DNA of 64,000 bases from Acidobacteriota bacterium (GTDB lineage: Bacteria; Acidobacteriota; Vicinamibacteria; Vicinamibacterales; CAVVIG01), in the NCBI GenBank assembly GCA_043743165.1, contig JAYTXA010000012.1, positions 66,357-130,356 on the forward strand, in the 5' to 3' direction. Below the pieces are notes generated by a model. That model was not told the DNA's origin. It saw only the letters and a program-made list of their open reading frames with translations, and did not search any database. The position numbers were made by a program, and so were the translations under genes. This document shows positions 2,553 through 16,101 of this stretch, one piece after another. The stretch's first letter is position 1, and each line of letters begins with the position of its first letter.

Positions 2553-3914
2553 ATGACCGTAGACCGCAGCCGGCTGCCCGTTCCGGGGAAGACGCCGCCC
2601 TTCCACTTTCCCGCGATCGAGCGCTCGACGCTGCCGGGCGGCCTTCGCGTGTGGAGCGTCCGTCACACGTCGATCCCGGTTGCGACGGTGATGCTGCTGG
2701 TGCGCCGCGGGTCGGCCGACGACCCGCCTGGCAAGGAAGGGCTCTCGGCCATCACGGCCGACATGCTTGACGAGGGTACCGGCACGCTGTCGTCGATCGA
2801 AATCCACGAGAAGCTGGCACACATCGGTGCCCAGCTCGATTCCGACATCGGACCGGATGCGACGCTGTTCACGGTTACGGTGTTGAGCCGCTTCCTGCCG
2901 CCGGCGGTGTCGCTGCTGGCCGACATGGTGGTGCGTCCCTCGCTGCGCGAGGAAGACTTTGCGCGCGTGCGGCAACTGCGCCTGCATCGGTTGATGCAGC
3001 TGAAAGACATGCCGGGGGCGGTCGCCGATCGTGCCTTCATGCGACTGCTCTACGGCCAGCAGCCCTACGGTCACACGCCGCTTGGCAACGAGGCGTCGCT
3101 CACCGCCCTCACGGTCGACGATGTGCGTGCGTTTCACGCCGCCAACGTGCGCCCTGGCGATGCCACGCTGGTGGTGACAGGCGACTGCGTGCACGCGGAG
3201 GTCGAGGCGCTGGCCGCCTCGTTCTTCGACGGCTGGACGGCCGGCACCGGCACGCCGCTGCCGGTGGCGGGGAAGCCGACGACACCGCCGCGCCTGAACA
3301 TCATCCCGCGTCCTGGTGCGCCGCAGTCCGAACTGCGCATCGGCCACGTTGGCGTCGCCCGCAACACGCCGGACTACCACGCACTGGTGGCGGCGAACAT
3401 GGTGCTCGGCGGACAGTTCGTCAGTCGCATCAACCTGAATCTGCGCGAGGACAAGGGCTTCACCTACGGTGCGCGCACGTCGTTCGACTTCCGGCGGTTG
3501 CCAGGCCCGTTCTCGCTGCAGGTGAGCGTGCAGACGGCGGCGACGGTCGAGGCCATTCGCGAGTCGATGCTCGAGATTGCCGCCATTCGCGATGCGCGTC
3601 CGGTGTCGGTCGATGAACTGTCGCTCGGCGTGGCGGCCCTTACGCGTGGCTACGCCCGCAACTTCGAGACGGCCGAGCAACTCGCGCGCGCGGCCACTCA
3701 ACTCGCGCTATACGACCTGCCCGACACCTACTTCGATGAGTTCGTCTCGCGCGTCGAGGCGGTGACGGTGGACGACGTGACGCGTGTGGCGCAGCGGCAC
3801 CTGTCGCCCGATCGCCTGACCACGCTCATCGTTGGCGACTACAGTGCCGTATCGAGCGGTCTGCTGACGCTCGGCCTTGGCGCGCCGTCGATGCTCGCGG
3901 CCGACACGTTCTAG
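2553..3914 (+). CDS. M16 family peptidase, non-catalytic partner subunit
   Basis: Track ORF 2433-3914 trimmed to ATG 2553 (MTVDRSRLPV), just after the upstream stop. M16 fold pattern but no HxxEH. Paired-gene arrangement typical of M16B. Confidence 0.85.
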   Translation: MTVDRSRLPVPGKTPPFHFPAIERSTLPGGLRVWSVRHTSIPVATVMLLVRRGSADDPPGKEGLSAITADMLDEGTGTLSSIEIHEKLAHIGAQLDSDIGPDATLFTVTVLSRFLPPAVSLLADMVVRPSLREEDFARVRQLRLHRLMQLKDMPGAVADRAFMRLLYGQQPYGHTPLGNEASLTALTVDDVRAFHAANVRPGDATLVVTGDCVHAEVEALAASFFDGWTAGTGTPLPVAGKPTTPPRLNIIPRPGAPQSELRIGHVGVARNTPDYHALVAANMVLGGQFVSRINLNLREDKGFTYGARTSFDFRRLPGPFSLQVSVQTAATVEAIRESMLEIAAIRDARPVSVDELSLGVAALTRGYARNFETAEQLARAATQLALYDLPDTYFDEFVSRVEAVTVDDVTRVAQRHLSPDRLTTLIVGDYSAVSSGLLTLGLGAPSMLAADTF

Positions 3915-5144: not shown

Positions 5145-7922
5145 TCACCTCTCGAGCAGCGATTGCCAGTTCAGGATGACGTTCACCGGCTGCGGCGCGT
5201 CGGTGGACGGCACAATCATGAGGAAGCGTTGGCCGTCAGGGGCCGCATCGAACTGGGTGTAGCTCTGCAGGCTTCCTGGATCGATGCTGGTCCGGAACAG
5301 CTTCTGCGGCGTCCCGACGCTCAGCGTGGGCGTCAGCGTGATGGGCACAGTCATCAGATCGCCGTCGTGTGAGACGTAGAACAGTTCCTTGCCGTCCCGC
5401 CGCCAAACGCCGCGGAGGCCCCCACCTCGGGACACCTGCTGTTTGTTGTCGCCGGCGGGAAACGATCGGACGTAAATCTCCGGCGAACCCGTTTCGTTGG
5501 ACTGGTACACGAACCACGCGCCATCGGGCGAGAAGCGCGCCGACGATTCACTCGCGGGCGACGACAGCACGGAGCGCTCCTCGGCCCGGCCTCCAAGGCT
5601 GTGCAGCGCGATATCATAATTGCCGTCGGGTCTGGTGCGCGTATACAGGACGCCCTTGCCATCGGGAGCGAGGTCGGGCAGAACCACGACGTCTGCTCCT
5701 GGTGGAACGACGACGCTCTGCGCCGCGCCTTCGGCCGGCGCCATCCGGACCAGCATCGAACCCTTCGCCGACACGCTGGCGAAGACAATCGCAGACTGGT
5801 CGCGCGCCCAGGAGCTCATGAAGGCCGTGCTGCCGTACGTCAACTGCGACGTCGTCTGCCGACCCAAGTCGACCAGCATCAGGTCGTAGACCCGACTGGC
5901 CTCGTTGAGCCGGGACACCGTTGCGCGCGACCCGTCGGGGGAGATCCGAACGTCACGCAGAGAGCCGCTCACCGGTGCCGCTTCACCGAGGATCTGCCCC
6001 TGGCGACTCACCCACACCAGGCGGCTGGCGCCGTTCGCACTGCTGACGTAACTCAGCACATCGTCCTGAACGGAGAACGTCGTAGTGCCGCCACCTGCAA
6101 CAGCAGACACCGACTGAGCCAGGGGCTGTGGCTCGCCGACAATTTGCGCCGTCTCCCCGTCCAGGCCCATCGCGAACAGGGTCGCCTCGCGCACGAAGAG
6201 TAGATGACCGTGACTCGTGCCTCCAGGCCTGAGCCAGGGGGCATGAATGACGCCTCTCAACGCCGCCGCCGTGAGCGCCTGGCTCGTCGCTCCATCGGCC
6301 GAGCCAATCCGCAGGGACGAAGCGCCGAAGCTATTGGTGCCGTAGATGAATCGACGGCGGTCCCGCAGGAACCCTGCCAGCGATTGCGAGATCTCATTGG
6401 TGGCGTCGAACGGCGCGGCTGGAACTGACGCTCCCCCCGACGCGGAGACTCGGCGCAGTGGGCCAGCGGATGGCGGAAAGATAATCGTGTCATCCGCCCA
6501 GATGCCAGGTCCGCCCACATTGCCGGCCGCTGTCACATCCTGGAGTGTGCCGGTCGCAAGGTCCACGGTCTTGAGCCTGCCGTCCGCAAAGAACCCCATC
6601 TTCGTGCCGTCGGTGGACCAGAAGGGATATACGGCCCGATCTGTCCCGCGTACACTCTGCGCCGACAGGCTGTTGAGCGGGCGGATGTAGACCAGACGCT
6701 TGCCTGATGCCTGATCGATGCCGACGATCGCAATGCGCGTCCCGTCAGGCGACACCGCCGGCGGCTGTCCCCGCACCGGCGTCACATCATCGGGCAGCGT
6801 CAGCTGAAGACGAACCACCGGCTTCGCGTCCGCCACCGCCGCGCGCGGCCGGAGCAATGGAATCAGGACGCCAGCCGTCAGCACGGCGCCCACCAATAAC
6901 GCCGCCACAACACGCCATGGACGCGGCGACGTCCCGACGGCGACCGCAGTCGCAGATGCAAGCCCAGACCCGCTGCTGATGCTCGACGAAGACAGAGCGT
7001 CCAGCGCGAACGCCAGGTCGCCAGCCGACATGAACCGCCCACTGGGACTCTTCGCCAGGCAGCGATCGACGATGAGCGCCAGAGCCGGCGCGGATTGCCG
7101 CAGGTCGGCCGGCAGTTCCGGCGGCTCCTCCTTCAGAATCGCCGTCATGACGTCGGCCGAGGTATCGCCGGCGAATGCTCGACGCCCCGCCAGCATCTCG
7201 TAGAGCACCGCGCCCAGCGCGAAGATGTCGGCGCGTTGGTCAACGGCCAGCCCGCGCACCTGTTCGGGCGCCATGTAGCCCACCGTGCCCAGCACCATCC
7301 CGGGCGTCGTCTCCGGCGCCGTCGTCGGCATCTGCGTGTCCGTCCCGTCCGTCCCGTCCGTCCCACCCGCCCCGCCCGCCCCGCCCGCCCCGCCCGCCTG
7401 GCCTGCCCCGCCTGCCCGTTCCGCGAGCTTGGCCAGCCCGAAGTCGAGAATCTTCACGCGGTCGTCGGTGGTGATGAAGACGTTCTCCGGCTTCAGGTCG
7501 CGGTGGACCAACTGCCTCTCGTGCGCGGCGGCAAGCCCGCGCGCGATCTGCACCGCGTACTCGACCGCTTTTCGCGTCGTGAGAGGCCCGGCCGCCAGCC
7601 GCTCGCGCAACGTCTGGCCGTCGAGCAGCTCCGACACGATGTAGGGCCCGGTGGCCTGCGCTGAGCCGACCGATGTATCTGCGTGTCCGATGTCGAAAAC
7701 GGCGAGGATGTTGGGATGATTCAGGCTGGCGACGGCGCGCGCTTCCAGCTCGAATCGACGCAGCCTTTCCGCGTCCGCGGCCACGTCGGCGTGGAGCACC
7801 TTGATGGCGACATCCCGCACGAGCCGCCCATCGTGCGCTCGGTAGACTTCGCCCATGCCGCCGGCCCCGAGGGCGGAGACGATCGCATAGGGGCCGAGTC
7901 GGGTGCCAGGAGTGAGCGCCAA
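5145..7922 (-). CDS. Ser/Thr protein kinase with TM helix and C-terminal TolB-like (PD40/WD40-like) beta-propeller
   Basis: 925 aa with GAGGMGEVY glycine loop, AIK, HRDLKPEN, DFG and GYMAPE. TM segment WRVVAALLVGAVLTAGVLIPLL. Repeated xSPDGxxxxF/Y propeller blades. Confidence 0.9.
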   Translation of the reverse strand: MALTPGTRLGPYAIVSALGAGGMGEVYRAHDGRLVRDVAIKVLHADVAADAERLRRFELEARAVASLNHPNILAVFDIGHADTSVGSAQATGPYIVSELLDGQTLRERLAAGPLTTRKAVEYAVQIARGLAAAHERQLVHRDLKPENVFITTDDRVKILDFGLAKLAERAGGAGQAGGAGGAGGAGGTDGTDGTDTQMPTTAPETTPGMVLGTVGYMAPEQVRGLAVDQRADIFALGAVLYEMLAGRRAFAGDTSADVMTAILKEEPPELPADLRQSAPALALIVDRCLAKSPSGRFMSAGDLAFALDALSSSSISSGSGLASATAVAVGTSPRPWRVVAALLVGAVLTAGVLIPLLRPRAAVADAKPVVRLQLTLPDDVTPVRGQPPAVSPDGTRIAIVGIDQASGKRLVYIRPLNSLSAQSVRGTDRAVYPFWSTDGTKMGFFADGRLKTVDLATGTLQDVTAAGNVGGPGIWADDTIIFPPSAGPLRRVSASGGASVPAAPFDATNEISQSLAGFLRDRRRFIYGTNSFGASSLRIGSADGATSQALTAAALRGVIHAPWLRPGGTSHGHLLFVREATLFAMGLDGETAQIVGEPQPLAQSVSAVAGGGTTTFSVQDDVLSYVSSANGASRLVWVSRQGQILGEAAPVSGSLRDVRISPDGSRATVSRLNEASRVYDLMLVDLGRQTTSQLTYGSTAFMSSWARDQSAIVFASVSAKGSMLVRMAPAEGAAQSVVVPPGADVVVLPDLAPDGKGVLYTRTRPDGNYDIALHSLGGRAEERSVLSSPASESSARFSPDGAWFVYQSNETGSPEIYVRSFPAGDNKQQVSRGGGLRGVWRRDGKELFYVSHDGDLMTVPITLTPTLSVGTPQKLFRTSIDPGSLQSYTQFDAAPDGQRFLMIVPSTDAPQPVNVILNWQSLLER
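7339..7419. repeat. in-frame tandem 9-nt repeats inside the kinase gene
   Basis: (TCCGTCCCG)x3 then (CCCGCCCCG)x3-4 plus degenerate units. On the coding strand this encodes GGAGQAGGAGGAGGAGGTDGTDGTD. Confidence 0.85.
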
Positions 7923-7959: not shown

Positions 7960-9006
7960 TCAGTCCGCGAGCAGCGCGCGCTTCAGGAACCGGCTCAGGA
8001 TCAGCCCGTCCACGAACTTGAACGGCGTCACACCGGTCGTGTAGTGCCCGCACCGCAGCACCGCCACTTCGTGGGGGATCCCCTGCTTCTCGAATTGACG
8101 CACAAGGTCGCGCGACAGATCGACCGGGAACGTCAGGTCGTAGCGTGCGTACACCAGCAGCGTCTTGCGGTCGCGCAGCCGCTCGAGGAAGTTCGCCGGG
8201 CTGAGCGGGTTCCAGAGCTTGCGCAGCAGGTCGAGTTCGATGTGGCCGTCGAGTCCTTCACGAACGTGTGAGGTCGAGATGCCGCGCCACACGACGTCGG
8301 CGAAGTAGGGCGAGATATGGTTCAGCGCCTGGGCTCGCACCAGCGGCTCGTGAGCCGTGGTGAGGAGCGACAGGCACGACCCGAGGCTCGACCCCAGGAT
8401 GCCGATGCGGTCGTAGCCCTGCGCGTGCAGCCACGCAATCGCCCGGCGCGCATCGAGCACCGCCTGCCGGCACACCTGCAGCGTGCGCACGATGTTGGCG
8501 GACACGATGTAGTCGGCACGCCGCAGCTCCGGCGGCATGCGGAGGTCGTGATAGGGCAGGCTCATTCGCAAGGCCGTGAGCCCGTGCATCGTGAGCAACT
8601 TGCAGAGGCCGACATGGCCGCCGGCATCCGAATTCCACTGCGGCAGCACCACGACGGCCGCCCGATGCGTGCGTGCCGGGTCGTCCTTCGGGTGAAACAG
8701 GCGGCCGTAGACCGTGTTGTTCTCGGCGTGCGGCGTGTCGAGCGCGCTCGGAAACGTGAGCAACTGCTCGCCGGCCTCGACGCCGGAGCCGAGCGTGTAT
8801 GCAGTCGTGGCAGGCGGCGTGTAGAAGGCGTCCGTGTCCGTCATGACCTCGGCCACCCAGTCGTCGATCAGCGCGTGAGGCGGGTCACCAGCCGCCGCGT
8901 GGCGGTGAGACATCCAGTCGAGACCCCAGTCGAAGGGACGAACGACGCGGTCCGTGGTGACCGACGCAAGTCGGCGTTCCCATGCGTGGAAGAGCGCTTG
9001 AAGCAT
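7960..9006 (-). CDS. alpha/beta-fold hydrolase
   Basis: 348 aa with nucleophile elbow GSSLGS and a downstream His (CGHY). Confidence 0.75.
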   Translation of the reverse strand: MLQALFHAWERRLASVTTDRVVRPFDWGLDWMSHRHAAAGDPPHALIDDWVAEVMTDTDAFYTPPATTAYTLGSGVEAGEQLLTFPSALDTPHAENNTVYGRLFHPKDDPARTHRAAVVVLPQWNSDAGGHVGLCKLLTMHGLTALRMSLPYHDLRMPPELRRADYIVSANIVRTLQVCRQAVLDARRAIAWLHAQGYDRIGILGSSLGSCLSLLTTAHEPLVRAQALNHISPYFADVVWRGISTSHVREGLDGHIELDLLRKLWNPLSPANFLERLRDRKTLLVYARYDLTFPVDLSRDLVRQFEKQGIPHEVAVLRCGHYTTGVTPFKFVDGLILSRFLKRALLAD

Positions 9007-9025
9007 CGAATCCCCATGCTATACT
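8998..9025 (+). promoter_or_regulatory. sigma70-type promoter of the asd operon
   Basis: TTGAAG (8998-9003), 16-nt spacer, TATACT (9020-9025). Lies in the divergent region next to the start of the hydrolase gene. Confidence 0.5.
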
Positions 9026-9149
9026 CTCCGGGCTTTGATGGCTCTCACCTCCACGACTCGAAAGTGCACCGATCGAAAGCGGGTCCACCGTGTCGAAGGA
9101 GTTGTGCTCGGATGCTAGTCACCTAGAGACCATTCACGAGCTGAACCCT

Positions 9150-9183
9150 GCCGACACGGTTGAACCGCGTCGGCTTTTTTTTT
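9150..9183 (+). terminator. intrinsic terminator inside the asd 5' leader (attenuator)
   Basis: GCCGACACGG / TTGAA / CCGCGTCGGC (one A.C mismatch) followed by T9, 20 nt before the asd ATG. Confidence 0.65.
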
Positions 9184-9202
9184 GGAGAAACGAAGGCTTC
9201 TT

Positions 9203-10246
9203 ATGGCGTCCATTCCTGTTGGAATCCTTGGCGCGACCGGCATGGTCGGTCAGCAGTTCATCGCGTTGCTCGCGAACCACCCATGGTTCAAGGTCGCGTA
9301 CCTGGGTGCCAGCGAGCGGTCCGCCGGGAAAGCGTTCAAGGACGCCGCCGCCTGGCGCCTGCCGAACCTGCTGCCAGACGACGTCGCCAACCGCATCGTC
9401 GAGAAGGCCGCACCCGGCACGGCACCGAAGCTGGTGTTCTCCGGACTCGATTCGTCGGTCGCCGGCGAGATCGAGGCCGAGTTCGCCAGAGCCGGCCACA
9501 TCGTGGTGAGCAACTCGCGCAACTACCGCATGGTCGACACCGTGCCGCTGCTCATCCCGGAAGTGAATCCCGAACACCTGCAACTGCTCGACCTGCAGGG
9601 CGACGCGCAGGGCTGGAAGGGACGCATCATCACCAACCCGAACTGTTCGACCGTGGCCATCACGATGGCGCTCGCGCCGCTCCGGCAGTTCGGCATCGAG
9701 AAGGCGATGGTCACCACGCTGCAGGCCATCTCGGGCGCCGGCTACCCGGGCGTGCCTTCGTGGGACATCCTCGGCAACATCATCCCGTTCATCTCGGGCG
9801 AAGAAGAAAAGATCGAGACCGAGACGCGGAAGATCCTCGGCACGCTCGGCACCGGCAAGGTGCTCGACCACCCGGTGCGCGTCAGCGCAACGGCTACGCG
9901 CGTGCTCGTGCGCGACGGCCACAGTTGCTCCATCTCGGTGGCGCTCGCACAGAAGCCGACCCCGGAGGCGATGATCGACGCGTGGCGCTCGTTCCGCGGA
10001 CGCCCGCAGGCACTCGACCTGCCGACTGCACCAAAGCATCCCGTCGTCTACCTCGAGGAGGCGAACCGGCCACAGCCGATGCTCGACGCCGGCCGCGAAG
10101 GCGGGATGGCGGTGAGCGTGGGACGCCTGCGTCACTGCTCGCTCTTCGACTACAAGTTCATGGCGCTCGGACACAACACCATTCGCGGCGCGGCTGGCGT
10201 GGCCATCCTCAATGCCGAACTGCTCCAGGCGGAGGGGCGGCTGTGA
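9203..10246 (+). CDS. asd: aspartate-semialdehyde dehydrogenase
   Basis: Track ORF 9182-10246 trimmed to ATG 9203. MASIPVGILGATGMVGQ Rossmann N-terminus, active-site NCST context, and pathway neighbours. Confidence 0.9.
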   Translation: MASIPVGILGATGMVGQQFIALLANHPWFKVAYLGASERSAGKAFKDAAAWRLPNLLPDDVANRIVEKAAPGTAPKLVFSGLDSSVAGEIEAEFARAGHIVVSNSRNYRMVDTVPLLIPEVNPEHLQLLDLQGDAQGWKGRIITNPNCSTVAITMALAPLRQFGIEKAMVTTLQAISGAGYPGVPSWDILGNIIPFISGEEEKIETETRKILGTLGTGKVLDHPVRVSATATRVLVRDGHSCSISVALAQKPTPEAMIDAWRSFRGRPQALDLPTAPKHPVVYLEEANRPQPMLDAGREGGMAVSVGRLRHCSLFDYKFMALGHNTIRGAAGVAILNAELLQAEGRL

Positions 10247-11625
10247 ACGTCATCATGAAGTTCGGCGGCACCTCGGTGCAGGACGCCGACGCGATGAACC
10301 GTGTCATTGCCATCGTTCGCAATCAGTGGGCGGCGAACTCGGCGGCCCGGCCGCCGGTGGTGGTGGTGTCGGCGATGTCGAAGGTGACGGACCGCCTGGT
10401 CGAGACCGGCCGGCTGGCCGGCGACCGGCAGACGAGCCAGGCCACTCAGATCATTGCCGACCTCCTGACGCGTCATCTCGGCGTGGCCGCCACGCTCGTG
10501 CAGGGGCCGGCACTCGATGAACTGAACACGCAGCTCACGTCGGACTTCAACGCGCTGCAGGCCGACGTCAAGACGTGGGCCGAGGCCGGCGAGGTGACGC
10601 CCGCGGCTGGCGACGTGCTGCAGGCCATGGGCGAACTGGCGAGCAGCCGGATTGTGGCCGCCGCCTTTCGCCAGCAGGGCGTGAACGCCGCCTGGGTCGA
10701 CTCGCGCCAGGTGCTGGTGACCGACGCGGAGTTCTCGGCCGCGCTGCCCGACATGGATGCCACCGCCGAACGCGCACAGGCGATTGTGGCCACCAAGACC
10801 GCGACCGGCCAGGTACCGGTGATGGGCGGCTTCATCGGCGCCACCGCCACCGGCATCACGACGACACTCGGTCGCGGCGGCAGCGACTACTCGGCCGCCA
10901 TCTTCGGCGCGTGCCTGGACGTCGACGAGATCCAGATCTGGACCGACGTCGACGGCATGCTCACCGCCGACCCGCGGGTTGTGTCGGTCCCGGTGCTCGT
11001 GCCGGAGCTGTCATTCGACGAAGCGTCGGAGCTGGCGTACTTCGGCGCGAAGGTGCTGCACCCGAGCACCATCCTTCCCGCCGTGGCGAAGAACATCCCG
11101 GTTCGCATCCTCAACTCGAGGCGTCCCGAGGTGAGGGGCACGATGATCACCGCGAAGGGGCGGGGTGATGGCCACACCCTGACGGCGCTGGCCTGCAAGC
11201 GCGACGTGACGGTGATCGACATCACCTCATCGCGCATGCTGATGGCCTTCGGCTTCCTGCGCCGGCTGTTCGAGGTGTTCGAACGCTTCCGGACGCCGGT
11301 CGACGTAGTCACGACGTCCGAGGTGAGCGTGTCGGTCACCGTCGACAACACCCGCCGGCTCGACGACATCATCCGCAACCTGCGCAATTTCGCGGAGGTC
11401 TCGACTGAACCGAGCATGGCCATCGTCTGCATCGTGGGCGAGAACCTGCGGTCGGATCCGGCGCTGTTCGGCCGTGCCGTGAACGCGCTTGCGTCGGTGC
11501 CGCTGCGGCTGGTGTCGCAGGCCGGGTCGCGCCGCAACATCACGTTCGTCATGCGCGACGAGGATGTGGTGTCGGCGATGAACCTGCTGCACGACGAATT
11601 CTTCGGAGTGAAGGTAGGCGCCTGA
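10243..11625 (+). CDS. lysC: aspartate kinase
   Basis: The 821-aa track ORF is upstream read-through. GTG 10243 overlaps the asd stop (GTGA) and gives MNVIMKFGGTSV, the kinase signature. C-terminal ACT-like region. Confidence 0.9.
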   Translation: MNVIMKFGGTSVQDADAMNRVIAIVRNQWAANSAARPPVVVVSAMSKVTDRLVETGRLAGDRQTSQATQIIADLLTRHLGVAATLVQGPALDELNTQLTSDFNALQADVKTWAEAGEVTPAAGDVLQAMGELASSRIVAAAFRQQGVNAAWVDSRQVLVTDAEFSAALPDMDATAERAQAIVATKTATGQVPVMGGFIGATATGITTTLGRGGSDYSAAIFGACLDVDEIQIWTDVDGMLTADPRVVSVPVLVPELSFDEASELAYFGAKVLHPSTILPAVAKNIPVRILNSRRPEVRGTMITAKGRGDGHTLTALACKRDVTVIDITSSRMLMAFGFLRRLFEVFERFRTPVDVVTTSEVSVSVTVDNTRRLDDIIRNLRNFAEVSTEPSMAIVCIVGENLRSDPALFGRAVNALASVPLRLVSQAGSRRNITFVMRDEDVVSAMNLLHDEFFGVKVGA

Positions 11626-12332
11626 TGCGGATTCTGCTGGTTGGCTACGGCAAGATGGGACGGCTCGTCGGCGAACTGGCCCCCGGCTACGACTGCGACG
11701 TGGCTGGTGTCGTCGACCCGCTGTCGAAGGCGCACACCGCCGCGCTCGATGATCCGCGCTGGAAGGGCAACGTCGACGTCGCGATCGACTTCACGATGCC
11801 GGATGCCGTCGTGTCGAACGTGGCCACGCTCGCCGCCCAGGGGATCAACATCGTGCTCGGCACCACCGGATGGGGCACGCACGAGGCGGAGTTGAAGCGG
11901 CTCACCGCCGCCGCCGGCATCGGCATCGTCGCCGCCCCGAACTTCTCGACCGGCGTCGTGCTGTTCGACGCGGTGCTGGCGCGAGCGGCCGAGATGTTCG
12001 CCGGACAGCCGGAATTTGCAGCCTACCTGCACGAGTCGCATCACGCGGCCAAGAAGGATGCGCCGTCTGGCACGGCCCTGAAGCTCAAGCAGACAATGGA
12101 GGCCGCGGGCTACAACCGGCCCATTGATGTGGCCGCTACCAGGGCAGGCTACATTCCCGGCACCCACACGATCGGCTTCGACGGACCCTCGGAATCGATT
12201 ACGCTGACACATACCGCTCGCGACCGCGGCGGCTTCGCTCGCGGCGCGCTCACGGCGGCGAGGTGGGTGAACGGGCGCAGCGGCTGGTTCAGCATGAAGG
12301 ACGTTCTCGGGATTGCGAATCGTTATGACTAG
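11625..12332 (+). CDS. dapB: 4-hydroxy-tetrahydrodipicolinate reductase
   Basis: 235 aa, MRILLVGYGKMG dinucleotide fold and HHxxKxDxPSGTA motif (ESHHAAKKDAPSGTA). TGATG junction with lysC (1-nt overlap). Confidence 0.87.
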   Translation: MRILLVGYGKMGRLVGELAPGYDCDVAGVVDPLSKAHTAALDDPRWKGNVDVAIDFTMPDAVVSNVATLAAQGINIVLGTTGWGTHEAELKRLTAAAGIGIVAAPNFSTGVVLFDAVLARAAEMFAGQPEFAAYLHESHHAAKKDAPSGTALKLKQTMEAAGYNRPIDVAATRAGYIPGTHTIGFDGPSESITLTHTARDRGGFARGALTAARWVNGRSGWFSMKDVLGIANRYD

Positions 12333-13227
12333 ACCATTCACCGGAGTCGGTACCGCGCTCGTCACGCCGTTCACGTCGTCCGGCGAGCTCGATGAGAAGG
12401 CCGTGCGCCGGCTCGGACGCCGCCAGATCGATGCCGGCATCCACTTTCTGGTGCCGTGCGGCACGACGGGCGAGAATCCGACACTGACCGACGCGGAACG
12501 CGTCCGGATGGTCGAGATCCTCGCCGACGAAGCCGCGGGGCAGACGCCAATCCTCGCTGGCGCCGGCGGCTACGACACGAAGGAAGTGATGCACCTGGCC
12601 GGCCTGATGAAGAAGGCTGGCGCCACAGGCCTCCTCTCCGTCACCCCCTACTACAACAAGCCGACACCGGAAGGGCTCTACCTCCACTACAAGGCAGTGG
12701 CCGAGAGCACGGACCTGCCGATCGTGGTCTACAACGTCCCCGGTCGCGCCGGCGTGAACGTCGAGCCGAAGACGCTGGCCCGCATTGCCACGCTGCCGAA
12801 CATCATCGGGGTGAAGGAAGCGTCGGGCAATATCAGCCAGATGGTCGAGATCTGCCAGCTCCTGCCCGAGGATTTCATCGTTCTCTCGGGCGATGATGCG
12901 ATCACGCTGCCGTTGATGGCCATCGGCGGCCGCGGCGTCATCTCGGTGGCCTCGAACGAGATTCCGGCCGAGATGGTGGCGATCGTGACCGCGGCGGCTC
13001 GCGGCGACTTTGCCGCGGCGCGCGCGGTGCACAACCGCATGCTGCCGTTGATGCAGATCAACTTCGTCGAGGCGAACCCGGTGCCGGTGAAGTCGGCGAT
13101 GGCGATGATGGGGCTGCTCGAGGAGGTCTACCGCCTGCCGATGTGTCCGCCGTCGGACGGCGCGAAGGAGAAGATCCTTCGCGTGCTGAACGAGCTGCAG
13201 CTCCTGAAGCCGGCCTACGTCCAGTAG
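12325..13227 (+). CDS. dapA: 4-hydroxy-tetrahydrodipicolinate synthase
   Basis: ATG 12325 gives MTRPFTGVGTALVTPF. GTTGE motif and YNxP (VVYNVPGR). Confidence 0.9.
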   Translation: MTRPFTGVGTALVTPFTSSGELDEKAVRRLGRRQIDAGIHFLVPCGTTGENPTLTDAERVRMVEILADEAAGQTPILAGAGGYDTKEVMHLAGLMKKAGATGLLSVTPYYNKPTPEGLYLHYKAVAESTDLPIVVYNVPGRAGVNVEPKTLARIATLPNIIGVKEASGNISQMVEICQLLPEDFIVLSGDDAITLPLMAIGGRGVISVASNEIPAEMVAIVTAAARGDFAAARAVHNRMLPLMQINFVEANPVPVKSAMAMMGLLEEVYRLPMCPPSDGAKEKILRVLNELQLLKPAYVQ

Positions 13228-13269
13228 CCCGATGCGACCGGCGAGCGACGACACGAAGGAGAGCGGCAC

Positions 13270-14301
13270 GTGGAACCTGGGATGAACGGTACGGTCGATC
13301 TCGTTGGGCTGACGCGCGCGCTGGTCGACATCGACTCGACGACCGGTCGCGAAGGCGCTGCTGCAGCGTTCCTGTCGCGCCGCCTCCAGGAGATTGGCTT
13401 CGTCGTCGACGAGCAGCAGGTCGACGACCACCGCTTCAACGTCTTCGCCACGCCCACCGGCGAGCAGCCCACGGTCGTCTTCTCCACTCACTTCGATTGC
13501 GTGCCGCCGTTCTTTCCGAGCCGGCTCGAGAACGGGCGCATCTATGGACGCGGCTCGTGCGACGCCAAGGGGATCCTAGTCGCGCAGGTGGCGGCCGCGG
13601 ACATCCTGCGGAACGAGGGCGAGACGCGCGTCGGCCTGTTGTTCGTCGTGGGCGAGGAGCGCGGCAGTGAAGGGGCCAAGCGCGCAAACCTCGACCTGCG
13701 CGCCGCCGGCTGTCGATATCTCATCAACGGCGAGCCGACCGATCGGCGCCTCGGCCTGGCGACGCGTGGCATCCAGCGTGTGGTGCTGAAGGCGACGGGA
13801 CGCGCCGCGCACTCGTCCTTCCCCGAATTGGGCGAGTCGGCCATCGACAAGCTGATCGACGTCCTGATGGAGCTGCGGCGGGTCGACTGGCCCGCTGATG
13901 CGCTGCTCGGCAAGACGCACTACAGCGTCGGCCTTATCTCGGGCGGCGTTGCGCCGAACGTCGTGTCACCGATGGCGCAGGCCGAGCTGATGTTCCGCAC
14001 GGTGAGCGATGCTGCGCTCGTGATGGACATCCTGCGTCGCTTCGAGCCGCGCGTCATGATCGAGCCGGTGCTCGAGGTGCCACCGGTGAAGATGGCCACG
14101 GTGGACGGGTTCGACGCCGCCGTGTTCCCGTATACGACCGACGTGCCGTTCCTGCGCAAGTGGGGGCAGCCGCTGCTCTTCGGCCCCGGCTCCATTCACG
14201 TGGCGCACACCTCCGACGAGTTCATGGCCATCGACGAGCAGCAGGCGGCTGTGGCCGACTACGCGGCGCTCGCCCGCGAACTGGTCGCGAGAGCCGGCTA
14301 G
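13270..14301 (+). CDS. M20 family metallopeptidase (ArgE/DapE type; DapE-like by context)
   Basis: 343 aa with THFDCVP and GRGSCDAKG motifs. AAGGAG 8 nt upstream of the GTG. Last gene of the dap cluster. Confidence 0.7.
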   Translation: MEPGMNGTVDLVGLTRALVDIDSTTGREGAAAAFLSRRLQEIGFVVDEQQVDDHRFNVFATPTGEQPTVVFSTHFDCVPPFFPSRLENGRIYGRGSCDAKGILVAQVAAADILRNEGETRVGLLFVVGEERGSEGAKRANLDLRAAGCRYLINGEPTDRRLGLATRGIQRVVLKATGRAAHSSFPELGESAIDKLIDVLMELRRVDWPADALLGKTHYSVGLISGGVAPNVVSPMAQAELMFRTVSDAALVMDILRRFEPRVMIEPVLEVPPVKMATVDGFDAAVFPYTTDVPFLRKWGQPLLFGPGSIHVAHTSDEFMAIDEQQAAVADYAALARELVARAG

Positions 14302-14310
14302 GCCGGACGC

Positions 14311-16101
14311 GTGACCCGTTCCGACCCCCAAGCGGCCTATACCGAGCGCATCGCGCGCCTCGACGTTCGCCTCGCTGCAGGTGAACGCCAGCATCAGCGC
14401 ATCTCGAACCTGCGTCTGGCCCTGTTCGCCACCGGCGCCGCCGTCGCCTGGGCCGCCTTCATCCGCACGTGGCTCAGCCCGGCGTGGTTGCTGCTGCCCG
14501 CCACGGCGTTCCTGGCGCTGCTGGTGGCCCACGCGCGCGTGTTGAACCGCAACGAGCGGCTGCGGCGGGCGCGTCGCTACTACGAGCGCGGGCTGTCGCG
14601 GCTCGACGGCACGTGGTCCGGCACCGGACCTGACGGCGCCCGCTTCCTCGGCGAACACCGCTACGCGCGCGACCTCGATGTGTTCGGACGGGGCTCGCTG
14701 TTCCAGCTGATCGACACCGCCCGCACCGAGGCGGGCGAAGAGACGCTGGCCGACTGGCTGCGCGTGCCCGCCGGTGTCGAGGAGGTGCTGGCGAGGCAGG
14801 CGGCAGTGGCTGAACTACGCGAGCGGATCGACTTTCGCGAAACGCTCAACGTCCTCGCGGCCGAGGCGCACGTCTCGCGCACCGGCGTGCTGACGTCGTG
14901 GGCCGCCGCAACCCCGGTCGGATTCGGCGCGACCGAGGCCCGGCTCTTCGCGGTGTGTGCCGTGGTCACCGGACTCCTGGTGGCGGCGATGTCGGCCGGG
15001 TGGGTGTCGAGCATCGCGGTGGTGCTCTGGCTGGTTGTGCCAGGCGGCGTGGCACTGGCGCATCGCGTCCGCGTGTGGCAGGTGATTCGCCGCGTCGACG
15101 CGGCGGCAGACGACCTCTCGCTCCTCGAAGCGCTGCTGTCCAGGCTCGAGCAGGAAGCCTTCACTGCGCCGAAGCTCACGGCACTGCATGGCCGCCTCGA
15201 TGCCGCCGCGGTCATCCGGCCATCGGCTCGCATCGCGCAGTTGCGCCGCTACATCGCCGCGCGCGATGCGCTGCGCAACGAGTTCGTCCGGCCTTTCGGT
15301 CTCCTGCTCCTCGTGCGCAGCCAGGCCGCCGTAGCCATCGACCGCTGGCACGCGGCGCACCGCCGCTCACTTGCCGCGTGGCTGACCGCAGTCGGCGAAT
15401 TCGAGGCGCTCGCATCGCTGGCCACCTACGCGTTCGAGCACCCACGCGATCCGTTCCCGTCCATCGAACCCGAAGGGCCGTGCTTCACGGCGACTGCCCT
15501 CGCGCACCCGTTGATCGCGGGAGGCGCCGCAGTGGCGAACAGCCTGTCGCTCGGCGGCAGCGCCCCGAAGGTACTCGTGATCAGCGGGTCGAACATGTCC
15601 GGCAAGAGCACGCTGCTGCGGGCGGTCGGCGCGAACACGGTGCTGGCGCTGGCCGGCGCCCCGGTTCGCGCGGAGCGACTGGCGCTGTCGCCGATGGCAA
15701 TCGGAGCCACGATCCGTGTCGAAGACTCGCTGCAGGAAGGCCACTCGCGCTTCTACGCCGAGATCCTGCGCATTCGCGACATCGTGGCGCTCACCGAGGG
15801 GAACGCGCCCGTGCTCTTCCTGCTCGATGAGATTCTCCACGGGACGAACTCGCACGACCGCCGCATCGGCGCGGAAGCGGTGGTGCGTGCGCTGCTCGAC
15901 GCCGGCGCCATCGGCCTTGTGACGACTCACGATCTGGCCCTGACGGCGCTGGCCACCAGCCTGGAACCGCTCGCGAAGAACGTGCACTTCGAGGACCGCA
16001 TCGAGCAGGGGCGGATGGTGTTCGACTACACCATGCGCGACGGCGTGGTGGAGCGCAGCAACGCCCTGGAATTGATGCGCGCGGTCGGGCTGAAGGTCTG
16101 A
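14311..16101 (+). CDS. MutS-related ATPase (domain V only) with membrane-spanning N-terminal half
   Basis: 596 aa. Walker A GSNMSGKSTLLR, LLDEILHGTNSHDR, TTHD. Four hydrophobic helices in the first ~250 aa. No mismatch-binding domain. Confidence 0.8.
   Translation: MTRSDPQAAYTERIARLDVRLAAGERQHQRISNLRLALFATGAAVAWAAFIRTWLSPAWLLLPATAFLALLVAHARVLNRNERLRRARRYYERGLSRLDGTWSGTGPDGARFLGEHRYARDLDVFGRGSLFQLIDTARTEAGEETLADWLRVPAGVEEVLARQAAVAELRERIDFRETLNVLAAEAHVSRTGVLTSWAAATPVGFGATEARLFAVCAVVTGLLVAAMSAGWVSSIAVVLWLVVPGGVALAHRVRVWQVIRRVDAAADDLSLLEALLSRLEQEAFTAPKLTALHGRLDAAAVIRPSARIAQLRRYIAARDALRNEFVRPFGLLLLVRSQAAVAIDRWHAAHRRSLAAWLTAVGEFEALASLATYAFEHPRDPFPSIEPEGPCFTATALAHPLIAGGAAVANSLSLGGSAPKVLVISGSNMSGKSTLLRAVGANTVLALAGAPVRAERLALSPMAIGATIRVEDSLQEGHSRFYAEILRIRDIVALTEGNAPVLFLLDEILHGTNSHDRRIGAEAVVRALLDAGAIGLVTTHDLALTALATSLEPLAKNVHFEDRIEQGRMVFDYTMRDGVVERSNALELMRAVGLKV

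Follow-up and report, generated by a model that had tools for sequence, protein, structure and literature searches.

A conserved leader with lysine codons upstream of asd-lysC-dapB-dapA in Vicinamibacteria: a probable ribosome-mediated transcription attenuator

Introduction

Lysine biosynthesis genes are textbook targets of control at the RNA level by the L-box riboswitch. In Thermus thermophilus, a leader open reading frame (ORF) with Lys codons reportedly controls a terminator at the lysine cluster of the alpha-aminoadipate (AAA) pathway, as Tsubouchi et al. are said to have described in 2005 (J Biol Chem). To our knowledge, almost nothing is known of gene regulation in Acidobacteriota. Here, we describe the 5' leader of the gene cluster asd-lysC-dapB-dapA in a stretch of 64,000 nucleotides (nt), referred to as the window, from an Acidobacteriota bacterium of the order Vicinamibacterales (class Vicinamibacteria; assembly GCA_043743165.1, contig JAYTXA010000012.1). 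The leader is probably a ribosome-mediated (leader-peptide) transcription attenuator, which most likely reports the supply of charged tRNA-Lys.

Leader-peptide attenuators are well described in enterobacteria (trpL, hisL, thrL, leuL, pheL and ilvL) and were reviewed by Vitreschak et al. (2004), as cited in a passage of PMC10117765. The same passage lists SEP5 of Sinorhizobium meliloti. This putative leader peptide, the ORF of which contains six Thr and three Lys codons, is encoded upstream of an aspartate dehydrogenase gene. A survey of Actinobacteria places lysine under riboswitches and not under attenuators (PMC1262725). In the literature, we found no description of a Lys leader peptide in front of asd or lysC, or of any attenuator in Acidobacteria.

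Leader loci and scoring

A scan with the Asd protein, using one genome per species, yielded 80 loci, nearly all of them from Vicinamibacterales or Acidobacteriota, with 96% and 93% identity for the closest Asd matches, which places the window in Vicinamibacterales. A recognisably homologous leader was found at 38 of the 80 loci, which are referred to as group A and were picked through Asd homology and not through the leader. Leaders of group A share the extended -10 element (mostly identical), the terminator and much of the intervening sequence. The same leader is carried by L013, a metagenome-assembled genome of Luteitalea. Approximately 18 more distant loci share the layout but differ in sequence, including that of the terminator (ACCCGCYG.../...CRGCGGGUUUU). 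When metagenome contigs were scanned with a pattern, 80 further hits were returned, 29 of which are genuine leaders (28 with a scorable ORF). The other 51 were rejected as chance matches within coding DNA, including one recurrent unrelated gene.

Pairing was scored as the percentage of alignment cells that are paired and compared to partners slid by 1-3 columns, and additionally to column shuffles. Helix counts are based on up to 66 leader sequences (genome and metagenome).

Conservation and linkage to asd

All sequence elements of the classical attenuator class were found in the leader, namely an ORF, codons for the end product, a terminator, an antiterminator helix (2:3) and an anti-antiterminator helix (1:2). 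Conservation of the coding frame, invariant Lys codons, conserved complementarities and spacing, and linkage to asd are present as well. The alignment of group A contains 35 invariant columns, which include both AAG codons and the CGG following the second AAG. In the metagenome contigs, asd follows each of the 27 leaders with enough downstream DNA (27/27), and the pattern scan found no leader in front of any gene other than asd. Among the loci sampled, the element is strictly an asd leader.

The leader ORF and its codons

The coding features of the leader are as follows.

9035 (TTG) or 9038 (ATG) to 9116-9118 (TAG), plus strand: leader ORF of 27 or 26 codons, peptide (L)MALTSTTRKCTDRKRVHRVEGVVLGC
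9059-9064, plus strand: CGA-AAG, a rare Arg codon followed by Lys codon 1 (9062-9064); AAG invariant in 38/38 group A leaders
9074-9082, plus strand: CGA-AAG-CGG, with Lys codon 2 (9077-9079) followed by CGG; AAGCGG invariant in 38/38 group A leaders

The preliminary description of this DNA had mentioned a 26-codon ORF and, as an alternative to its preferred reading, leader-peptide attenuation. The ORF was confirmed from ATG 9038 to TAG 9116-9118, with an additional in-frame TTG at 9035, and the attenuation proposal is now backed by a conserved frame, invariant Lys codons and three-periodic indels. The frame is intact in all 38 genome leaders and in all 28 scorable metagenome leaders, and in group A it is open for 24-39 codons. 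The stop codon of group A is found at one aligned position, as TGA (17), TAG (15) or TAA (6). The 29 metagenome leaders show a similar distribution (TGA 13, TAG 12, TAA 4), with the stop shifted by +9 nt in three of them. In 33 leaders, 28 nt separate the second AAG from a TGCTCG anchor, and in the others this distance is 37, 43 or 46 nt. The stop follows TGCTCG after 11 nt in 36 leaders and after 8 nt in two. All indels of the leader are multiples of three, and the insertions (9, 15 or 18 nt) often bring extra Lys codons. Because the ORF is intact, the stop triplet varies at a fixed site and the indels are three-periodic, the leader ORF is, by its pattern of conservation, a real coding frame.

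Lys makes up 8.8% of the leader residues, compared to 2.2% in eight proteins of the window. Peptides of the distant clades, such as MFAKRKEMKIKRASLKRVPRA..., carry two to five Lys codons. The preliminary description had pointed to Thr and Lys codons alike. Both Lys codons turned out to be invariant, whereas the position two before Lys codon 1 is occupied by T, A, I, M, N, S or V. As far as sequence comparison can tell, the regulatory codons are thus the two conserved Lys codons, and not the Thr codons, which are not invariant.

Three UCGAA(A/G)G motifs had been placed at the junctions of a fold. They are indeed found starting at 9058, 9073 and 9093, but the third is lineage-specific (UCGGAGG in relatives) and a junction role does not hold. 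The codon in front of AAG varies by whole codons (CGA, CGC, CAT, TAT, CCT, CTG, AAA or CAG); because the preceding triplet changes in whole-codon steps around a fixed AAG, the UCGAAAG motifs are best read as in-frame Arg-Lys codon pairs. A GNRA tetraloop of the form C-GAAA-G was also considered and rejected by eye, since the flanking bases pair inconsistently across relatives. It is further disfavoured by the fixed AAG, next to which the preceding triplet becomes CAU, UAU, CCU, CUG or AAA.

The same attenuator might sense charged tRNA-Arg instead, or Lys and Arg together. Arg accounts for 18.6% of the leader residues, compared to 7.7% in window proteins, and Lys is usually flanked by it: CGA, which accounts for only 16 of the 272 Arg codons in eight genes of the window, precedes 57 of the 93 leader Lys codons, and 46 of the 93 are followed by CGG. 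KR dipeptides recur in 18 translated peptides of the distant clades, and the gene at the end of the operon is a member of the ArgE/DapE family. However, the AAG codons alone are invariant at both sites. In front of Lys, TAT, CAT, CCT, CTG or AAA may also be found, and the first AAG is followed by a codon for Arg or, in many leaders, for Cys, Trp or His. The invariant CGG may be constrained at the RNA level because it overlaps GCGG (9079-9082), which can pair with CCGC (9165-9168) of the terminator 3' arm (region 4) in an extended antiterminator. In addition, the operon yields precursors of lysine and not of arginine. Sensing of Arg, alone or together with Lys, is regarded as rather unlikely. 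Codons for the end product are enriched, but Arg is enriched likewise, so that specificity for Lys is probable rather than firm.

Terminator and alternative RNA helices

The RNA features of the leader, numbered as regions 1 to 4, are the following.

9048-9058, plus strand: region 1, anti-antiterminator strand, consensus CCUCCGACACG, in the window CCUCCACGACU
9088-9101, plus strand: region 2, shared strand CCGUGUCGAAGGAG, which pairs with region 1 or region 3
9104-9143, plus strand: stop-codon hairpin with the core GCUCG (9106-9110) / CGAGC (9137-9141) and TAG 9116-9118 in the loop
9147-9159, plus strand: region 3, terminator 5' arm (GCCGACACGG at 9150-9159 plus flank), a sequence mimic of region 1
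9165-9174, plus strand: region 4, terminator 3' arm (CCGCGUCGGC; CCGCGTCGGC), hairpin of -17.3 kcal/mol
9175-9183, plus strand: U9 tract, T9 in most relatives

An intrinsic terminator inside the 5' leader had been described before and was confirmed. It consists of GCCGACACGG, a TTGAA loop and CCGCGTCGGC, which form a GC-rich stem of 10 base pairs (bp) with one A.C mismatch (9156.9168), owing to which a simple terminator scan missed the hairpin. The terminator ends 19 nt before asd and is conserved in relatives. T9 at 9175-9183 is the sole run of at least six T on either strand of the window, and, this attenuator aside, the genome seems to have hardly any canonical U-tract intrinsic terminators. 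The mismatch is itself conserved, with A.C in 33 of 66 leaders and G-C in just 12, and the same A pairs with U9091 in the antiterminator. Because the conserved A9156.C9168 mismatch weakens the 3:4 helix, the competition is probably biased toward the antiterminator.

Region 2 (CGUGUCGGAGG) is complementary to both region 1 and the terminator 5' arm. Region 1 lies within the ORF, and its consensus is a near copy of that arm. In the window, region 1 pairs with region 2 as CUCC/GGAG plus CGAC/GUCG. The exact complementarity of CCGTGTCG (9088-9095) to 9152-9159, from which a mutually exclusive antiterminator had been proposed, was verified, and the pairing is conserved above the controls: for the antiterminator helix 2:3 (9088-9096 with 9151-9159), 81-87% of the alignment cells are paired, compared to 22-50% after sliding. 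For the terminated state (1:2, stop hairpin and 3:4), the values are 80-84% and 26-48%, respectively. The stop hairpin is 97.6% paired in 66 sequences and is predicted to stack under the 2:3 helix in the antiterminator. Applied to the whole alignment, RNAalifold recovers no helices other than the terminator and the hairpin at the stop codon, and its covariation term is close to zero. Compared to its shuffles, the leader forms a more stable fold (z = -2.2).

The consensus 1:2 helix comprises 11 bp. A U-A pair of the 2:3 helix is replaced by C-G in 10 sequences, and an A-U pair of the 1:2 helix by G-C in 10 sequences. Positions 9056/9091/9156 read A/U/A in 27 leaders and G/C/G in nine (L028, L042 and the L107 group). 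These nine span three groups defined by peptide sequence. The covariation yields Fisher p values of 6e-4 (1:2) and 2e-5 (2:3), uncorrected for phylogeny. Such a three-way covariation is predicted if one shared strand has two alternative partners. The structural support rests on conserved complementarity, the slid controls, this one covarying position and the architecture in distant clades. Judged from these pairings, the 5' leader of asd-lysC-dapB-dapA is a strongly conserved terminator/antiterminator switch.

The position of the helices relative to the Lys codons was obtained from duplex searches. In approximately half of group A, the window included, 0-3 nt separate the end of region 1 from Lys codon 1; in the remaining leaders, the search lets region 1 run across the Lys codons or locates it at a more upstream site. 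Counted from the first base of Lys codon 2, region 2 begins after 9-10 nt in 26 of 38 group A leaders. Among the 18 distant leaders, about 13 have the best complement to the terminator 5' arm in the 3' part of the ORF, approximately 9-14 nt after the last Lys codon (z of -1.6 to -3.3 in most). A simple duplex search for region 1 in the distant clades gave z values from -1.9 to +1.6.

The sensor preferred in the preliminary description was a riboswitch, in which a fold at 9046-9101 would bind lysine, diaminopimelate (DAP), threonine or S-adenosylmethionine (SAM) and lock the antiterminator strand, so that the terminator forms. A terminator/antiterminator pair in front of lysine-pathway genes would suit this view, as would the conserved outer CUCC/GGAG pairing of the fold, and in other phyla these genes are under the control of the lysine riboswitch (Seliverstov et al. 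2005, PMC1262725). The inner helix of the fold (9064-9070/9082-9088), in contrast, is unconserved, with 55% of cells paired against 59% in the slid control. Rfam 15 gave no match at gathering score in the window or at 18 related loci. The leader had been said to be neither L-box nor T-box, which agrees with the lack of matches to RF00168 and RF00230 in the window, the leader and the 18 relatives; the asd motif RF01732 was not matched either. Even at E<=10, a search of 8950-9260 returned chance-level hits only, to Qrr (E = 10) and to an Aggregatibacter small RNA (sRNA; E = 7), both on the terminator hairpin. Furthermore, the putative aptamer core tolerates insertions of 9, 15 and 18 nt and up to approximately 40 nt of extra sequence, and its junction motifs are the in-frame codons discussed above. 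A riboswitch would leave the frame, the stop-codon pattern and the three-periodic indels unexplained, and distant clades retain the ORF and its Lys codons, but not the RNA sequence. A riboswitch at this locus is considered very unlikely.

It is also highly improbable that the leader is a nascent-peptide sensor, in which the basic peptide (RK..RKRV.RVGGVVL) would stall in the exit tunnel on free lysine or a metabolite, like TnaC or SpeFL, and not via tRNA charging. The peptide is fairly conserved in group A, and its RKR motif is shared with the distant clades. However, the conserved codons at the C-terminal end overlap RNA strands that pair with non-coding partners of equal conservation (GUGCUCG/CGAGC and CGUGUCGG/CCGACACG). 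The C-terminus varies (GGVVL, GVCVL, GECVL or AACVL, with R, H, C, S, T, D or P as last residue). A stall at the stop codon would favour termination and, for this type of sensor, would imply a logic of ON by ligand, opposite to end-product repression.

Promoter and 5' end

The promoter consists of two elements.

8998-9003, plus strand: -35 hexamer TTGAAG, from a promoter scan
9017-9025, plus strand: extended -10 element TGCTATACT, with TATACT at 9020-9025 and an upstream TG, 16 nt from the -35 hexamer

The previously noted arrangement TTGAAG-16 nt-TATACT is present, and the -10 element was additionally found to be of the extended type. The promoter is the sole sigma-70-like site in 8000-15000 (shuffle mean 0.5), and TGNTATACT occurs once in the 64-kb window (0.07 expected). 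TGCTATACT is exact in 33 of 38 genome leaders, with variants of one or two bases in the other five. In all 38, the -10 element lies 148-212 nt upstream of the end of the T-tract.

The start codon follows exactly 9 nt after the -10 element in 48 of 67 leaders (26 of 38 from genomes and 22 of 29 from metagenomes), and mostly after 9-13 nt, up to 15, in the distant clades (read by eye). The window features TTG at +9 and ATG at +12 after the -10 box. No Shine-Dalgarno sequence is present between the -10 box and the leader start codon. Based on the promoter geometry, the transcript is inferred to begin at or within a few bases of the leader start codon. The ORF would be leaderless or nearly so, because the start codon is usually 9 nt after the -10 box. 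This spacing suggests a 5' untranslated region (UTR) of 0-3 nt, and of 3-7 nt in the window.

The -35 hexamer doubles as codons 2-3 of a divergent gene (7960-9006, minus strand), which encodes a putative lactone hydrolase of the RcgR family and whose ATG (9004-9006) abuts the hexamer. This arrangement (CTTGAAGCAT) is retained in relatives. The promoter of the divergent gene itself must overlap the leader, because only about 30 nt lie between both start codons. A gene upstream of the hydrolase gene (5145-7922, minus strand) encodes a Ser/Thr protein kinase of 925 residues with C-terminal PD40/WD40-like beta-propeller repeats.

At locus L036 (about 2950-3000), the -10 box TTATACT is kept without leader ORF or terminator, and asd starts 24 nt after it. 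This locus is apparently a natural loss of the attenuator.

Proposed mechanism

In the model that we propose, the start of transcription, the translation of the ORF, the stalling at Lys codons and the response to lysine are all deduced from sequence features. Transcription would start a few bases after the extended -10 element, so that the ORF lies at or approximately 3-7 nt from the 5' end and would be translated in the absence of a Shine-Dalgarno sequence. With ample lysine, the ribosome would reach the stop codon (9116-9118) in the small hairpin and occupy the apex of the would-be antiterminator. Behind the ribosome, the helix between region 2 (9088-9101) and region 1 (9048-9058) could then be restored, the terminator (9150-9174 plus U9) would form and transcription would end at approximately 9183. 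The same terminated outcome is expected if the ORF is untranslated, because the 1:2 helix forms first during transcription.

When Lys-tRNA is scarce, the ribosome would stall when AAG 9062-9064, or perhaps also AAG 9077-9079, enters its A site, and would then cover region 1 or sit in the 1:2 loop. Region 2 would be free to pair with the terminator 5' arm, giving a long antiterminator (9079-9169, -44 kcal/mol), and RNA polymerase would read into asd-lysC-dapB-dapA and the deacylase gene behind them.

For the window, the calculated energies are -17.0 kcal/mol for the 1:2 domain, -12.1 kcal/mol for the stop hairpin, -17.3 kcal/mol for the terminator and -44.1 kcal/mol for the full antiterminator. 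Masking the RNA to 9076, as a ribosome holding Lys codon 1 in its A site would do, yields the antiterminator as the fold of lowest energy. If the RNA is free only from 9131, as for a ribosome at the stop codon, the terminator is obtained instead. These predicted energies fit a kinetic switch.

Several observations weigh against ribosome-mediated attenuation by Lys codons as formulated here. A 5' UTR of 2-7 nt without a Shine-Dalgarno sequence is a poor initiation context in Escherichia coli. The leader features only two Lys codons, which are non-adjacent, and Arg codons are even more frequent, because of which the sensed amino acid is not certain. Column shuffles were not significant for any helix, as 25-142 of 500 shuffles reach the observed values; since almost every paired column is invariant, the shuffles lack significance and overall covariation is weak. 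Thus, the covariation expected among related asd leaders was found as one position covarying three ways, but not for the helices overall. The 1:2 helix of the window is weaker than the consensus, with 4+4 bp, an internal loop and a duplex z of -0.4. Finally, with the RNA free only from 9092, which corresponds to a generous footprint at Lys codon 2, the terminator is predicted. Because of this prediction, Lys codon 1 may be the main or only effective site.

It is also conceivable, if rather doubtful, that the Arg-Lys-Arg context forms a dedicated stalling module, instead of resulting from constraints on the RNA, or that the element integrates lysine and arginine supply. CGA is decoded through inosine wobble, and with such a codon in the P site, reading of the following codon could be slowed, which could render the ribosome unusually responsive to Lys-tRNA. 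If this were true, the leader would be a mechanistically distinct attenuator, in which two scattered sense codons suffice.

The ORF and the terminator might also serve no regulation of asd at all, with the former encoding a small basic protein that has its own function, or specifying a short leaderless transcript or sRNA, and the latter simply being leaky. Action in trans is possible for leader peptides and attenuator transcripts, as in the case of rnTrpL/peTrpL of Sinorhizobium meliloti (PMC7298713 and PMC6614838). In such a reading, neither the mutually exclusive pairings, which are conserved, nor the location of the Lys codons between regions 1 and 2 would have a role, and the leader is strictly linked to asd. 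It is hardly probable in our view.

Operon, neighbouring genes and spacer

The genes downstream of the leader are the following.

9203-10246, plus strand: asd, aspartate-semialdehyde dehydrogenase (Pfam and NCBIfam), first gene under the proposed control
10243 (GTG) or 10255 (ATG) to 11625, plus strand: lysC, aspartokinase, closest to lysine-sensitive aspartokinase 3
11625-12332, plus strand: dapB
12313-13227, plus strand: dapA
13270-14301, plus strand: ArgE/DapE-family deacylase gene

This gene set agrees with the one named in the preliminary description. From asd to the deacylase gene, the genes overlap or sit close together, as in a tight operon, and the GTG start of lysC (10243) overlaps the stop codon of asd. 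An aspartokinase of the lysine-sensitive type, dapB and dapA are targets that fit control by lysine.

The deacylase gene is followed after a gap of 9 nt by a gene for a MutS-domain ATPase of 596 residues (14311-16101, plus strand), which may belong to the asd transcription unit. The protein scores below the cut-offs for MutS1 and MutS2 and shows a weak resemblance to KamC, the reactivase ATPase of lysine aminomutase.

The spacer between terminator and asd is enlarged in many relatives (L017, L019, L024, L027, L029, L048, L071, L103 and L107). Enlarged spacers hold tandem purine-rich repeats, e.g. CACGAAGG, CACAAAGG and CACAGAAG, which might be ribosome-binding or protein-binding repeats. The window contains a single ACGAAGG (9191-9197) shortly 5' of the asd start codon. 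L008 and L022 carry insertions of palindromic repeat elements (GGGCCTACG ... CCCGAGCTGAAGCTCGGG, and CCCGACCTGAAGGTCGGG) in the spacer, which in L022 displace the leader by about 200 nt in the upstream direction.

Comparison with known systems

The leader suggests that Vicinamibacteria, which are abundant soil bacteria, control lysine genes by a translated sensor with Lys codons. It is a compact test case of approximately 150 nt with a canonical terminator, in a genome that otherwise seems nearly to lack U-tract terminators, and a probable example of near-leaderless initiation independent of a Shine-Dalgarno sequence in Acidobacteriota. For the annotation of metagenome-assembled genomes, it provides a simple rule, i.e. 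a short KR-containing ORF plus a terminator upstream of asd. The known principles of attenuation remain unchanged.

The L-box (RF00168) has the targets lysC, asd and dapA and a terminator/antiterminator with OFF logic in common with the leader. It differs in being a five-helix junction aptamer of approximately 180 nt that binds lysine directly, whereas the leader described here is approximately 150 nt long, mostly coding and without an L-box match. The Thermus leader, going by its reported description alone, is also an ORF with Lys codons, but differs in pathway (AAA versus DAP), genes and phylum.

SEP5 of Sinorhizobium meliloti resembles the leader as a small ORF with codons of the aspartate family in a 5' UTR, and was proposed from sequence and Ribo-seq, according to the passage of PMC10117765 concerned. 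It differs in the gene that follows, in its Thr-dominated codons and in phylum, and a terminator architecture is not reported in that passage. The mycobacterial polycysteine small ORFs (sORFs; Canestrari et al., bioRxiv 10.1101/834739) and, in the passage of PMC10117765, the leaderless trpL of Sinorhizobium meliloti are sensory ORFs at or next to the 5' end of a transcript, in which pausing at the relevant codons remodels the RNA, as proposed here. The mycobacterial elements unmask a ribosome-binding site and act on translation, whereas the leader described here features a canonical intrinsic terminator. Compared to these leaderless sORFs, the 5' end of the leader described here is deduced from promoter spacing, with a UTR of 0-3 nt rather than a proven 5'-AUG.

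Taken together, the leader would work in the manner of the trp, his and thr attenuators of enterobacteria. Both feature a short ORF with codons for the product, the helices 1:2, 2:3 and 3:4 and a U-tract terminator in front of the first gene, with the regulatory codons at or beside region 1. The leader described here differs from the enterobacterial type in carrying two Lys codons, four codons apart and each in an Arg-Lys-(Arg) context, and in an ORF that starts 9-12 nt after the -10 box without a Shine-Dalgarno sequence. It further differs in its stop codon, which is located after region 2 in an additional conserved hairpin at the apex of the antiterminator, and in its host, a member of the Vicinamibacteria (Acidobacteriota).

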